Shown piece by piece: positions 12,117-17,681 of a DNA stretch of 64,000 bases. The notes beneath the pieces are model-generated. The model had not been told where the DNA came from. It saw only the letters and a program-made list of their open reading frames with translations, and ran no database searches. Position numbers and translations under genes: made by a program. Position 1 is the first letter of the stretch; the number at the start of each line of letters is the position of its first letter. The stretch lies in assembly GCF_058153355.1 (NCBI RefSeq), contig NZ_CM177019.1; one strand, written 5' to 3'.

Positions 12117-12243
12117 TTTCATTACTGCAAATGCCCCTGCGGGGGCATTTATGGAAACATAATTTACTCAATAATCGCCGGATGGTGAGGGCTTCCTTTT
12201 ACCAGAATTCAGCGCGGTGCAGCGCATATACGTGGAGAACAAA

Positions 12244-12780
12244 ATGTCATTTATTAAAACTTTTTCCGGGAAGCATTTTTATTATGACAAGATAAATAAA
12301 GACGACATCGTTATTAACGATATCGCGGTTTCCCTTTCAAATATCTGTCGCTTTGCAGGGCATCTTTCACACTTCTACAGCGTCGCCCAACATGCGGTGC
12401 TTTGCAGCCAGCTGGTACCGCAGGAATTTGCTTTTGAAGCGTTAATGCATGATGCAACAGAAGCATATTGCCAGGACATCCCCGCACCACTGAAACGACT
12501 TCTTCCTGACTATAAACGGATGGAAGAAAAAATAGACGCCGCAATCCGTGAGAAATACGGGTTACCCCCAGTTGTGAGTACGCCCGTGAAATATGCCGAT
12601 CTCATCATGCTGGCAACCGAACGCCGCGATCTCGGGCTTGATGATGGCTCTTTCTGGCCTGTACTGGAAGGCATCCCGGCAACAGAGATGTTCAACGTGA
12701 TTCCACTGGCACCGGGTCATGCCTACGGGATGTTTATGGAACGTTTTAACGATTTATCGGAGTTACGCAAATGCGCATGA
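12244..12780 (+). CDS. HD-domain phosphohydrolase (YfdR-like 5'-deoxynucleotidase)
   Basis: LMHDATEAY HD motif; 178 aa from the MSFIKTF start. Confidence 0.65.
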   Translation: MSFIKTFSGKHFYYDKINKDDIVINDIAVSLSNICRFAGHLSHFYSVAQHAVLCSQLVPQEFAFEALMHDATEAYCQDIPAPLKRLLPDYKRMEEKIDAAIREKYGLPPVVSTPVKYADLIMLATERRDLGLDDGSFWPVLEGIPATEMFNVIPLAPGHAYGMFMERFNDLSELRKCA

Positions 12781-13133
12781 ATGTTTTCGAAATGGAAGGG
12801 TTTCTTCGCGGGAAATGTGTACCGCGAGATCTGAAAGTGAACGAAACAAATGCTGAGTACCTGGTACGTAAATTCGACGCGCTTGAAGCTAAATGTGCGG
12901 CACTGGAAAACAAAATAATACCAGTGTCAGCTGAACTGCCACCAGCAAATGAAAGTGTTCTGTTATTTGATGCTAATGGAGAAGGCTGGCTGATTGGCTG
13001 GCGTTCTCTCTGGTACACCTGGGGACAAAAAGAAACCGGAGAATGGCAGTGGACATTTCAGGTCGGGGACCTTGAAAACGTCAATATCACTCACTGGGCA
13101 GTAATGCCAAAAGCACCGGAGGCTGGAGCATAA
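12771..13133 (+). CDS. YfdS-like prophage protein (DUF551-type)
   Basis: 120-aa ORF overlapping the upstream gene end; Trp-rich C-terminus. Confidence 0.4.
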   Translation: MRMNVFEMEGFLRGKCVPRDLKVNETNAEYLVRKFDALEAKCAALENKIIPVSAELPPANESVLLFDANGEGWLIGWRSLWYTWGQKETGEWQWTFQVGDLENVNITHWAVMPKAPEAGA

Positions 13134-13912
13134 TGACCACATTTACCAATAAAGAACTGATTAAAGAAATCAAAGAACGAATCAGCAGCCTAGAGGTTCG
13201 AGACGATATTGAGCGCCGTGCTTATGAAATTGCTCTGGCATCGCTAGAAGAGGAGCCGGTGGCATGGCTGCATTCAGAAAATGGCTTAGGTATTCCGGCA
13301 ATAACGAGGTGTAAAAACATTGCTGACAGTTGGTTATCAAAGGGCTGGTATGTTCAGCCGCTATATATAGCCAAGCCAGTGCCGGTAGTGCCAGATGCTC
13401 GTCCGTCTTTAAATAATGGCATAGTCGGTTTTGATGAAGGCTGGAACGCCTGCCGCGCCGCCATGCTTCATGGTGCCGAACCTGTAAACCAAACTTACAA
13501 GTCACCACACACGCAGTTTGAACAAGTTGCTGACCTCTACGAAATGCAATTTGATGACGGTCGCACTTGTGCCTTTCACACTGATGCGCAAAAGGCTGCG
13601 CAATGGCTTCAGGTGTGCGACGGAAACAGGGTTCAGGAATACGTTAAGCTGGAACGGCTGCAGAACGCGCTGTCTGGCAACTCTCCGGTAAGTCCGGGTG
13701 GTTGGATAAGCTGTAGTGAGCGAATGCCGAATGATAAACAGTATGTTTGGTGTTGGGGGAAGTCTTACGGCTGGACTGAGTGCGATACCTTCGAAGGGTA
13801 TTATGATTGGTCGAGAAACAAATGGTGGGCAGTTACTGACAATGAGGAAGAACAGGCATCGAAAGTAACCCACTGGATGCCACTACCGGAGCCGCCGCAG
13901 GAGGTGAAGTAA
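13133..13912 (+). CDS. Hypothetical prophage protein (259 aa, DUF551-like C-terminal region)
   Basis: Coupled ORF (start overlaps upstream stop). Confidence 0.35.
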   Translation: MTTFTNKELIKEIKERISSLEVRDDIERRAYEIALASLEEEPVAWLHSENGLGIPAITRCKNIADSWLSKGWYVQPLYIAKPVPVVPDARPSLNNGIVGFDEGWNACRAAMLHGAEPVNQTYKSPHTQFEQVADLYEMQFDDGRTCAFHTDAQKAAQWLQVCDGNRVQEYVKLERLQNALSGNSPVSPGGWISCSERMPNDKQYVWCWGKSYGWTECDTFEGYYDWSRNKWWAVTDNEEEQASKVTHWMPLPEPPQEVK

Positions 13913-14106
13913 TGAACAACTTAATGACAACTAAACAAGTCGCCGATTTCTGTGGTGTTTCAGTATCGACAGTTCTTCGCTGGAACAGCGTAAACAGGAG
14001 AACTGGTCAGAAATATAGGCCTGACTTTCCAGATCCTGATATTAAATCCTGCCCAAATAAATGGGCATCACACAAGATTTACAGATTTGCGGGAGTGATT
14101 GAGTAA
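13912..14106 (+). CDS. Excisionase / AlpA-family HTH protein
   Basis: 64-aa ORF with KQVADFCGVSVSTVLRW HTH; position next to integrase. Confidence 0.5.
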   Translation: MNNLMTTKQVADFCGVSVSTVLRWNSVNRRTGQKYRPDFPDPDIKSCPNKWASHKIYRFAGVIE

Positions 14107-14388
14107 TATGTATTAGCTTAGATGTGAGCTGACACATCTATGCTTAGATGCCAAACCTAATCTGAGCGTCCACTCTTTACCAAGAGCGGACGTTACCAAT
14201 GACCATATGACATGAATCGATAAGATCAAAACATTATCACCAAGAAATGTCATACCATTGATACAAATAAAATTGATTACCCCCTTACTCTTGTTGAAAA
14301 GTTAGTCGTAGAGTACCTATCGCAATGTAATCAGCTTTAATCATCTTAAAATTACTCCTTAAAAATTAGCTTTTATATACTGAACAAA

Positions 14389-15108
14389 TTAAATCTCTGT
14401 TTCTTTTCCTGCTCGGCTCAACCAATACTCCATTGTTTGAGTATGAATCTTTTCAGCGTATATTTTATCAATTAATTTATCTTGTTTTTCTTTAATGACT
14501 TCACGCAGTGAATCATATAACATAAAAAAACGTTCATCATCTTCCTCATTATTACCGTAATTTATTTGATTGAGCTCTGAAAAAATATGATAGTACCTTT
14601 TCTTCTTGGTCCCCGGCAATATTAAAACCAAGCCACATTGATCATATTCGAATTCACCTTTATGGGCAGCAAAGTTATGTCTAACATTCATAATAGAATC
14701 ATGTAAATCTCTGTATTTTTCTGGCACATGCTTTCTCTGCAATGTGAATCGACGCCCTTTCGCCTCTGTAAAACACTTACCGTAAGTAACAACTTTTGAT
14801 ATAAATAAAGACTTTAATATTAGATTCTTTTCTAAATCCGGATAAATAAAGTGTTGTTCTTTATTAATGTTATTACAAATGTTTTTTATTATATTCTCCC
14901 AACCAATAACATTCCGAAGATCTTTATCAAGCAACTGTAAGGCCACATATTGTTCTACAAAGCGGCCTTTTAAAGGTATTCGTGGTAATATTACACCTTT
15001 CTGCTTATAAATTCTTTCTATCGTATTATCTGGATATTGGATCTTCCTTATTTCTATTCCGTCTTCTTCTGATACCCTTACTAATGGTTCATTTTTTAAC
15101 TTTGACAT
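14389..15108 (-). CDS. AT-rich orphan gene between xis and int (239 aa, no recognisable domain)
   Basis: Clean ORF in a low-GC segment flanked by AT-rich non-coding DNA. Confidence 0.5.
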   Translation of the reverse strand: MSKLKNEPLVRVSEEDGIEIRKIQYPDNTIERIYKQKGVILPRIPLKGRFVEQYVALQLLDKDLRNVIGWENIIKNICNNINKEQHFIYPDLEKNLILKSLFISKVVTYGKCFTEAKGRRFTLQRKHVPEKYRDLHDSIMNVRHNFAAHKGEFEYDQCGLVLILPGTKKKRYYHIFSELNQINYGNNEEDDERFFMLYDSLREVIKEKQDKLIDKIYAEKIHTQTMEYWLSRAGKETEI

Positions 15109-15394
15109 GTTAACCCTCTTAAATAAAAAACTAACTTTATCCAGATAGTGTCCGTTAAGAAGTTTTCGTTACAACTAAGTTTCTAGGTAAATCATGAATC
15201 GACCTATAGTATCAAAAACATTTGGTGGTAAACATCTGCATTTATCAAATGGCAGGAGCGATTTAGGGGCATAGGGATAGTGATGATATCGATACTCGCC
15301 CCCCTCTTATGTCAACACAATGGCGTAAACTTAACGCTCACATCTCGCTCAAAGTGTGCTAGGAGATTTGGTTATGTTCAGGTGATACAAACCG

Positions 15395-16618
15395 TCAGTT
15401 TGAATCAGAGATAGTACAATTAACAATCGATTCAACCCTCTTCCACCATGCCAGGTAAGCTTTACGCTGTTCTTCTAGATAATCGCTCTTATCATAAACT
15501 TGCCATACCCCTGGCAGCTTATGACCAAGCATAATTTCTGCGATATGAGGCGCAGTAAGATCAGAAAAATTTGTTCGAGCTGTACGTCTCAAGTCATGAA
15601 GAGACCAATGAGGGAATTGATATCCTAAACACCGCCATGCGTACTGCATTAAATTGTAAGGCAGCGACTGCAATGATGTCCGACCAACGGGTTCCCTGCT
15701 TCCTTCCTTAGTAAAAAGCATATCGGAACCATTGTTCATAGAGATAGCGTACTTTATAAGCTCTTCAACCGGTTCAATAATGGGCCGCTTTAGCGGTTCG
15801 CCTGTTATCTCCCCTGTCTTATGTCGTTCTGGTGGTACAGTCCATACTTTATTAATGAAATCAAAATCGTCCACCCGGGCGGTAATTAGCTCTGAACTAC
15901 GGCAACCAAAATGCAGCAATAGTTTAATGAAGGCCCGGTATTTAGGAACCATTCGAGAACCATCGATCGCAGCATAAAGGATTTTAATTTCATCATGTGT
16001 CAGAAACCGTTTCTTCTGACCTTTACGGATATCCATATCTTTACCCGTGATATCCGACAGCGGGCGAGTTTCAATGAGCTTTCTCTTATACGCCCAGACA
16101 TGGGCCTGCTTTGCGTTAATTAGCAATCGGTCTGCTATTGCTGGAGTCTTAGTGCTAAGAGGCTCCAGGACTTCTAACCAATCATGCAATGTAGCTGCAT
16201 CGTGAGGGATATTCCCGATTTTAGAGAACAGGTGCAGCTCAAACGAGCGAAGTATCTGTTCAGAACCTTTTTTATTTTTTACACAATATGCTTCATACCA
16301 AGCACGGATCACAGACTCTACCGTCATGGCTTCAGTAGCTTTTCGTTTTTCAGCCTGCTTGACCAATCGTGGATTACGGTTTGACTCGAGTTCACCACGA
16401 AGACGGATAACTTCTTCTCTGGCCTCTTTTAATCCAGTTGCCGGGTAAGTTCCGATATCAAGACGCTCACCTTTCCCTGCCCATTGATAACGATATTGGA
16501 ACACTACGCGACCTTTCGGTGATACTCTGACAGACAGACCATCACGATCGGATTTAACCAAAACCTTATCACGTTCCTTTCCAACGACTGAACGCAACCA
16601 CGCATCAGACAGCGCCAT
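15395..16618 (-). CDS. Tyrosine-type site-specific integrase (P4-like family)
   Basis: 407-aa ORF with HDLRRTARTN and LGH...Y catalytic-region motifs and an arm-binding-type N-terminus. Confidence 0.85.
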   Translation of the reverse strand: MALSDAWLRSVVGKERDKVLVKSDRDGLSVRVSPKGRVVFQYRYQWAGKGERLDIGTYPATGLKEAREEVIRLRGELESNRNPRLVKQAEKRKATEAMTVESVIRAWYEAYCVKNKKGSEQILRSFELHLFSKIGNIPHDAATLHDWLEVLEPLSTKTPAIADRLLINAKQAHVWAYKRKLIETRPLSDITGKDMDIRKGQKKRFLTHDEIKILYAAIDGSRMVPKYRAFIKLLLHFGCRSSELITARVDDFDFINKVWTVPPERHKTGEITGEPLKRPIIEPVEELIKYAISMNNGSDMLFTKEGSREPVGRTSLQSLPYNLMQYAWRCLGYQFPHWSLHDLRRTARTNFSDLTAPHIAEIMLGHKLPGVWQVYDKSDYLEEQRKAYLAWWKRVESIVNCTISDSN

Positions 16619-17003
16619 TACTCACCTTGTACAAATCGCAAAACACCTCTGCTGTTTTGTACATTATGTACAAGCATATGTACAGATTTTTGATGAAAGC
16701 AAGCTGATCGATTTAAAGTTACATGAAAGAGTTTTCAATTAAAGAAGCTACATAAGCAAATGTATTTAAATGAGTTATATAGCTCAACTTCAATTAACTG
16801 AAAGGATTTTGAAAGAGTAAAAGAGCTTTAATTTGGACTTAATTATTGGGGTGAGAAATAATGGCAAAAGTGCGGCGCTTCGCCACCTCTTGCAAATAAG
16901 GAGACAACGTCATAATTCTTTCTTCTTGAGTAAGCGGCATCGCGCCGCGCTTGTTGAAAACGAAAAATTGCGGCTATTTTACCCATCAACGGGGGGGAGG
17001 CAA

Positions 17004-17681
17004 TCAGTGTTTACACAGGAGCTGCTCCAGTTCGTGCAACGAAGAAACGGTCCAGGTAGGCGCGATGCCTTCTGGTTGCTCGCGATTGTGCGCATTCAGC
17101 CAGCAGGTCGCAAGCCCGGCGTTGATGCCACCGAGAATATCGGACTCGGCAGTGTCGCCAACCATCAGCACGCGTGAACGGTCAGGATTGCCCGCCTGTT
17201 CCAGCGCATAATCGAAAATTTTCTTATTCGGTTTGGCTACGCCAACTTCTTCGGAAATCACCAACAAATCGAAATAATCACGCAGGCCCGTGCGTTCCAG
17301 ACGCACTTGCTGCAAGGCGCTAAAGCCGTTGGTGATGATGCCGATTTTGGCGTTGCCGCGAATGGCATTAAGCAGGGAAACCGCGCCCGGCAGCGGTGTG
17401 CAAATTTCCGCCATCGCATTAATGAAGGCCTCGTTGAGTTTACCTGGCTCGACGTTCAGCCGTTCGGCCCAGCTCTCAAAACGCCCGTGCTGAAGCTGTA
17501 ATGAAGTGATCGCACCGTTTTGATAATCTACCCACAGGGGCTTGTTAACGGCCTGATAGTCCTGAAAATCTTCAGCGGTAAAAGTGACGCTGTAATCAAG
17601 AAACATCCGCTGCAGGCCGGTGAATGAGTCAAAGGTAAACAGCGTTTCATCGGCATCAAAGAAAATCCAGTCCCACTTCAT
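17004..17681 (-). CDS. yjjG: Pyrimidine 5'-nucleotidase YjjG (HAD family)
   Basis: 225-aa [21 protein letters not shown] motif; synteny with rimI-holD-rsmC. Confidence 0.85.

Follow-up and report, generated by a model that had tools for sequence, protein, structure and literature searches.

A candidate stand-alone HEPN-like abortive-infection protein in the excisionase-integrase slot of an Escherichia coli lambdoid prophage

What is the role of a 239-residue protein encoded in AT-rich DNA between the excisionase gene (xis) and the integrase gene (int) of a prophage? The question was raised by a stretch of 64,000 nucleotides from contig NZ_CM177019.1 (RefSeq assembly GCF_058153355.1), referred to here as the window. 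The original prediction, which was made from the sequence of the window, regarded the open reading frame (ORF) as a candidate defence or abortive-infection (Abi) gene. Our analysis pointed to an uncharacterised stand-alone HEPN-like Abi candidate on a prophage, which none of the Pfam, NCBIfam, and PADLOC models scanned recognises.

A gene under purifying selection at the end of a prophage

The ORF was found exactly at the predicted place, 14389..15108 on the minus strand with an ATG start, and its product was assigned to phrog_8440, a PHROG family of unknown function, with an E-value of 1.4e-142. The predicted position between xis and int was also borne out by the neighbours. The left border of the slot is the excisionase gene on the plus strand (13912-14106; phrog_1553, E 4.1e-36), and the right border is a tyrosine integrase gene on the minus strand (15395-16618; phrog_1, E 7.6e-74). 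The region from 16619 to 16890 represents the prophage end and attachment region, as blastn similarity to the sequenced temperate phage 2H10, which carries the 239-aa ORF as well, extends up to 16,890, and yjjG starts beyond the prophage end at 17,004. The host gene order yjjG-rimI-holD-rsmC was identical across all related loci, and the presence of these four genes past the integrase showed that a lambdoid prophage of E. coli ends in this region of the window. The ORF had been described as standing alone and opposite to the early operon. It does oppose the early operon and xis, but it is co-oriented with int and follows it on the same strand at a distance of 286 bp, and a site scan found no terminator-like site between the two genes.

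The segment was as AT-rich as predicted, with a GC content of 31.5% for the ORF against 48.5% for the whole window. Along the sequence, the GC fraction was 0.29-0.35 over 14,200-15,250 and 0.42-0.52 on both flanks. The chance of 239 stop-free codons at the composition of the ORF was 1.6e-9, and comparison with an 86%-identical copy from Cronobacter gave 21, 14, and 67 differences at the first, second, and third codon positions with a dN/dS of 0.10. On these two grounds the ORF did not arise by chance, and it is a real gene under purifying selection.

The leader and promoter region that travels with the gene was defined by DNA similarity to the Cronobacter copy as 15109..15265 on the minus strand. 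A ribosome-binding site, AAGAGGG, is located at 15120-15114 ahead of the ATG. A consensus scan detected no promoter in the upstream region, and a possible extended -10 element, TGaTACTAT at 15214-15206, is a weak call read by eye. The RNA fold of the upstream 162 nt was no better than that of shuffled sequences (z -0.5). An upstream RNA antitoxin was considered as a general feature of the family and rejected, since the P2-type relatives of the gene abut or overlap int and have no upstream space. With the unremarkable upstream fold and these int-abutting relatives, no partner RNA is proposed, although one of an unconventional kind may exist.

Two other genes near the slot were noted. A YfdR-type 5'-deoxynucleotidase gene (12217-12780; phrog_318, E 5e-110) belongs to the early operon and lies a short way upstream of the slot; it is ordinary for this phage group, but the nearby slot often holds nucleotide-depleting defence genes (dCTP deaminase, dGTPase). 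Compared with its counterparts in phage 2H10 and in six related prophages, the DUF551 gene at 13133-13912 carries 53 extra codons in frame at 13503-13662, so that its protein has 259 aa in the window and 206 aa in the relatives.

Conserved motif and predicted fold of the protein

Sequence models gave little information on the protein. Pfam showed nothing significant for the query and 23 close relatives, and the query matched none of the Pfam HEPN families HEPN_AbiU2 (PF18734), HEPN_Cthe2314 (PF18730), HEPN_AbiV (PF18728), and HEPN_Apea. Among 130 diverse members, none had a Pfam match at E ≤ 0.001; three of them gave weak matches to HEPN_AbiU2 (best E 5.6e-3), and none matched Cthe2314. NCBIfam gave no significant match for the query and 20 relatives. 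PADLOC-DB 2.0.0, which includes AbiU, AbiV, ApeA, PD-T7-4, PDC, and HEC candidates, gave no match at E ≤ 0.001 for the query and 20 diverse relatives, the only entries being weak and partial (PtuB, 0.033; LmuA, 0.0017). PD-T7-4 is reported to overlap integrase genes often; identity with this system was rejected because no PADLOC model matched. A profile search of the protein database with the diverse family alignment did not reach beyond the family or to any Pfam-annotated relative. No experiment on any family member was found in the searchable papers and supplements: the accession WP_000040219 was not found in a full-text literature search, and the parts of the DefensePredictor supplements that were searched contained neither the accession nor the motif strings.

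The original prediction saw no recognisable motif in the protein. This is true for an unaided reading, but the family alignments revealed an invariant R-x5-H. The codons at 14662..14682 on the minus strand encode RHNFAAH from R143 to H149, a candidate for the HEPN Rx4-6H catalytic motif. R143 was invariant in 148 aligned family proteins and H149 was present in 147 of the 148; the two residues were invariant or nearly so in more than 140 proteins at 20-40% identity. Together with R143, Y109 and H136 were invariant in the family alignments, and D63, W70, K111, F113, R119, A148, H149, and G151 were near-invariant.

AlphaFold2 gave a confident model of the protein from 23 homologues (pLDDT 87.4, pTM 0.76). 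In the model, three to four short strands at the N-terminus are followed by a four-helix bundle consisting of helices 49-79, 92-111, 130-148, and 188-221, with a beta hairpin (157-180) inserted before helix 4. The R143-x5-H149 motif is located at the C-terminal end of helix 3 (130-148), and the loop 112-129 between helices 2 and 3 carries the conserved CFTEAKGRRF, which includes the near-invariant F113 and R119. By the definition of Anantharaman et al. (2013, PMC3710099), a HEPN domain is a four-helix up-down bundle in which helix 3 ends with the Rx4-6H motif and an insert separates helices 2 and 3. [quoted passage not shown] R143 and H149 are putative equivalents of the HEPN active site, as judged by their secondary-structure position and conservation rather than by residue superposition. 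The optional conserved acidic residue of HEPN helix 2 was absent, and the near-invariant D63 is found in helix 1.

The fold search was consistent with this assignment. Foldseek against AFDB50 gave matches over the full length of the model. One of them, with a probability of 1.00, was an entry named "Cthe-2314-like HEPN domain-containing protein" with 32% sequence identity (E 3e-18, TM 0.83); others were "Apea-like HEPN", several "HEPN AbiU2-like", and one "AbiV family abortive infection protein" entries with E-values of 1e-7 to 1e-10, all of these HEPN matches being annotated AlphaFold models and not solved structures. Against the PDB, nothing was significant (best E 0.068), and by this search neither a member of the family nor a close structural relative is among the solved structures; sequence searches of the PDB with the protein and two profiles yielded nothing relevant. 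Structure prediction followed by a fold search had been suggested along with the original prediction, and it returned a HEPN-like fold with matches to Abi-type HEPN models in AFDB50. At the level of the predicted fold, the protein probably belongs to the HEPN superfamily, near Cthe_2314, AbiU2, ApeA, and AbiV.

Two copies of the protein were folded together because HEPN RNases usually work as dimers. When a 30-residue GS linker connected the copies, the model reached a pTM of 0.79, compared with 0.76 for the monomer, a score that covers the placement of the pair and not the juxtaposition of the motifs. The linked model suggests a confidently placed pair forming a defined dimer. From the modelled fold and the conserved residues we infer that the 239-aa protein would have a metal-independent RNase activity dependent on the Arg and His of the motif.

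The slot as a variable cargo site and the spread of the family

The AT-rich block at 14107..15394 (33.7% GC) occupies the xis-int slot, and the 239-aa ORF is its sole substantial gene. By blastn, homology to eight prophages with other cargo (L012-L015 and L017-L020) ended at 14,102-14,191, just past the xis stop, where the left flank was shared, and in the pairwise comparisons with the same eight it resumed at 15,364-15,417, at the int stop. Since these breakpoints coincide with the AT-rich block, the block was recognised as a variable cassette. A search of 5426 complete E. coli genomes found the integrase in 699 (~13%) and the ORF region in only 70, which corresponds to ~10% of the prophages with the same integrase. 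Comparison of the locus across related prophages, which had been proposed as a check, therefore showed that the slot varies, the opposite of the presence in all related prophages that had been named as evidence against a defence role.

The content of the slot, taken as the segment between xis/DUF551 and int, was surveyed in 13 sampled loci of the 699 with the same integrase beside yjjG. Recognised defence systems were present in 6 of the 13: Dsr1 occupied three slots, an anti-phage dCTP deaminase two (one of them scored with PADLOC, E 1.9e-164), and a dGTPase one (PADLOC, E 9e-105). One slot held the 239-aa ORF. Each of the others was seen once: a DUF4365 nuclease-like protein with a weak PADLOC match to Aga_REase (L017:2210-3229; E 9e-9), a trio of an ATP-binding protein (ATPase), a STAS-like protein, and a 164-aa protein without a PADLOC match (L019:1351-3203), and unannotated proteins of 331 aa (L012:2121-3116), 515 aa (L014:1769-3316), and 413 aa (L018:2054-3295, minus strand), for which Pfam and PADLOC gave no significant match, and of 271 aa (L036:3032-3847, minus strand). 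The 271-aa cargo, from strain 214-4, has the same position and orientation as the 239-aa ORF and was considered as its homologue; on comparison the two were unrelated. No annotated anti-defence gene was found among the 13 sampled slot occupants.

With a variable segment, conserved flanks, and known defence genes in related elements, the cassette is the cargo of a prophage defence hotspot. The junction of xis and int in lambdoid prophages that integrate at yjjG, which ~13% of complete E. coli genomes carry, is thereby identified as such a site. The other unannotated cargos are defence candidates too, given that Dsr1, dCTP deaminase, and dGTPase occupy the same slot, and at least five of them are ready for discovery screens. 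The arrangement resembles the P2/P4 hotspots, for which Rousset et al. (2022, PMC9122126) describe variable cassettes between conserved phage genes, differing defence systems in one slot, and AT-rich inserts that are often single genes. The two differ in location, as the slot here is the xis-int junction of lambdoid prophages integrating at yjjG. The terms yjjG, rimI, prfC, holD, and "lambdoid" did not occur in a survey of E. coli defence islands (PMC10121019).

Where xis and the ORF converge, an inverted repeat search detected hairpins at 14,115-14,144 and 14,167-14,192. The minus-strand RNA of 14,107-14,388 folded with a z of -3.6, and none of 200 shuffles was as good; this convergence region includes an 11-bp hairpin whose loop is GGUA. 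The cargo breakpoints of related prophages cluster at the 14,115-14,192 hairpins, which may terminate transcription in both directions, affect RNA stability, or form borders prone to recombination.

The protein itself is widespread. The identical sequence was present on at least 885 public contigs, always named as hypothetical, and an exhaustive HMMER search (E ≤ 0.001) gave at least 500 representatives at 50% identity, nearly all of 220-260 aa. Ten diverse relatives mapped to phrog_8440 and to nothing else. In Cronobacter, the 86%-identical copy follows tail-fibre genes and umuDC, at the other end of the prophage. The window has DNA in common with the Cronobacter cassette only between 15,265 and 14,381, starting 157 bp ahead of the ATG and ending 8 bp beyond the stop codon, and this confinement of the similarity identified a unit of promoter plus gene. 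Relatives at ~40% identity are located 5-52 bp after, or overlapping, a P2/186-type integrase gene at the end of the cI-int operon (L002:4989-6732, L010:4962-6708, and L057-L060). The placement just downstream of int thus recurs behind an integrase family unrelated to that of the window. Other relatives lie between the lysis cassette and the terminase in the direction of the late operon, another adjoins P2-type portal and ogr genes, and another is found in a Vibrio filamentous phage. Relatives were also carried by 22 IMG/VR viral contigs, in 20 of which the match was within ~3 kb of the contig end. The contexts of the relatives are all accessory positions of temperate phages.

No recurring neighbour gene was seen across the inspected neighbourhoods, which were compared by inspection and not by formal clustering of flanking ORFs, and the cassette contained neither a tandem-repeat array nor an Rfam match. 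Two small ORFs were considered as partners and rejected: one of 19 codons (14,343-14,284, minus strand), outside the unit common with Cronobacter, and one of 46 codons (14,113-14,253), which is likewise outside the shared unit and straddles the cassette border. With no recurrent neighbour, repeats, or Rfam RNA, and with the small ORFs outside the shared unit, the gene appears to act alone. The 19-codon ORF, MIKADYIAIGTLRLTFQQE, begins 46 bp past the stop of the 239-aa ORF with a strong AAGGAG Shine-Dalgarno sequence ahead of it; as the Cronobacter cassette lacks this ORF, it probably represents a remnant or a coincidence.

Damaged copies of the gene were also observed. In E. coli DETEC-S792 an IS1 in the 3' end of the gene alters the C-terminus, in strain 2013C-3033 an IS3 lies just downstream of the gene, and two IMG/VR viral contigs (L053 and L054) carry truncated or frameshifted copies, which indicates that the gene is occasionally decaying.

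Proposed role, alternative explanations and known HEPN systems

The ORF can be described as a self-contained accessory unit, a promoter region plus a gene, in the integrase-proximal cargo slot of a yjjG-adjacent lambdoid prophage. We consider it likely, short of confident, that this gene encodes a HEPN-type RNase that acts alone in abortive infection and is expressed from the lysogen, a reading supported by the predicted fold and by the genomic context. Three computational lines, regarded as independent, lie behind the defence role: the slot, whose sharing with defence genes suggests such a role, the prevalence, and the fold with its motif. The defence part of the original prediction was partly supported, by the company of defence genes in the slot, by the prevalence of ~10%, and by the HEPN-like predicted fold with its Rx5H, but the protein matched no curated defence or HEPN model. 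In the proposed mechanism, the protein would be made in the lysogen from its own promoter, by read-through from int, or both, and its resting state would be an inactive homodimer or a larger oligomer. Infection by a phage would activate this assembly, upon which the paired Arg/His sites would cut RNA (tRNA, rRNA, or mRNA) without metal; translation would then halt and the infection abort, protecting the clonal population and the resident prophage. We infer all of these steps, from expression in the lysogen through RNA cleavage upon a phage trigger to abortive infection, on the model of HepS and AbiV. In the P2/186-type relatives the gene is the last of the lysogenic cI-int operon.

A broader proposal, which we offer tentatively and hold to be possible rather than likely, is that phrog_8440 as a whole may be an unrecognised and widespread anti-phage family of stand-alone sensor-effector RNases, with at least 500 clusters at 50% identity in lambdoid, P2-like, and filamentous phages. 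The N-terminal beta element and the hairpin before helix 4 would serve as a built-in sensor of a phage protein, comparable with HepS and Tha and their tail proteins, and would free a latent HEPN-type site without an antitoxin. The placement after two unrelated integrase families would then reflect selection for expression from the int transcript in the lysogen.

The same fold and context were weighed against other roles. The helical bundle might bind a ligand, a protein, or a nucleic acid without cutting RNA, as the product of some other lysogenic-conversion or fitness gene whose likeness to HEPN is structural only. We regard this as rather unlikely, because an Arg and a His kept invariant or nearly so in more than 140 proteins can hardly be accounted for unless they serve catalysis or form a specific binding site, the Foldseek matches with a probability of 1.00 concentrate on Abi-type HEPN families, and the slot-mates include defence genes. 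An active RNase could also be a toxin that serves the prophage itself in addiction, stabilisation, or induction control and is restrained by an unrecognised RNA or host factor. HEPN proteins are common as toxins of toxin-antitoxin (TA) systems (PMC3710099), AbiV and AbiF need an RNA partner, ~157 bp of upstream DNA is co-conserved with the gene, and the IS insertions and truncated copies are as expected of a costly gene. However, there is no partner ORF, tandem repeat, or Rfam match, the upstream RNA folds like its shuffles, and the relatives that abut or overlap a P2-type int leave no room for an upstream RNA gene, so that we judge this role unlikely; TA and Abi roles are in any case not mutually exclusive.

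The position of the gene bears on two further roles. A counter-defence or host-takeover gene would aid the phage during lytic growth, for instance through the breakdown of RNA from the host or from rivals, and would fit the fact that phage accessory slots also hold anti-defence genes and that some relatives are placed between the lysis genes and the terminase, oriented with the late operon. This is very unlikely for the gene of the window, which opposes the early operon and follows int, ends the lysogenic cI-int operon in its 186/P2-type counterparts, and shares its slot with Dsr1, dCTP deaminase, and dGTPase in a sample where no anti-defence gene was annotated. An accessory factor of integration or excision is suggested by the position between xis and int only. 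About 90% of the prophages with the same int and xis lack the gene and carry unrelated cargo instead, the gene also occurs far from any recombinase, and the protein has no DNA-binding domain. The slot comparison and the occurrence away from recombinases effectively refuted this role, and we consider it extremely improbable.

If the stand-alone HEPN-type protein proves protective, it would represent a compact single-gene RNase immune module missed by PADLOC, Pfam, and NCBIfam. Stand-alone HEPN Abi proteins on prophages have already been documented (HepS, Tha, AbiV), and for specialists the result is expected in kind.

[quoted passage not shown] ApeA proper differs by a ~300-aa N-terminal beta-rich domain, whereas the 239-aa protein has only ~40 residues of beta structure, and AbiU2 (lactococcal AbiUii) is itself not the protective component of AbiU. 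AbiV is likewise a small HEPN protein of ~200 aa with the same Rx5H spacing (RNHKSKH, compared with RHNFAAH here). It forms a dimer with a contribution of a beta hairpin, is made constitutively, and aborts infection by cutting rRNA (bioRxiv 10.1101/2024.05.05.592566). AbiV and the 239-aa protein do not match at the sequence level, and the R and H are not strictly conserved in the AbiV family, whereas they are invariant or nearly so in phrog_8440. AbiV also requires the upstream abiV2 RNA, whereas the upstream DNA here has no special fold and is missing in the relatives that abut int. The marks of a type III TA system, a repeat array like that of ToxIN/AbiQ or a structured RNA as in AbiV/AbiF, were not found at the locus.

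No likeness to HepS was detected, either by sequence or by Foldseek against the PDB. HepS is a stand-alone HEPN Abi protein of the Salmonella prophage Gifsy-1 that acts without a partner (Nature 2026, PMC13043305); although its expression is constitutive, it stays inactive until phage tail-tip proteins trigger it, and it then cuts tRNA anticodon loops (PMC13043305). Like the 239-aa ORF, HepS is a single gene in an accessory slot of a lambdoid prophage, and it is the best functional analogue of the candidate described here.
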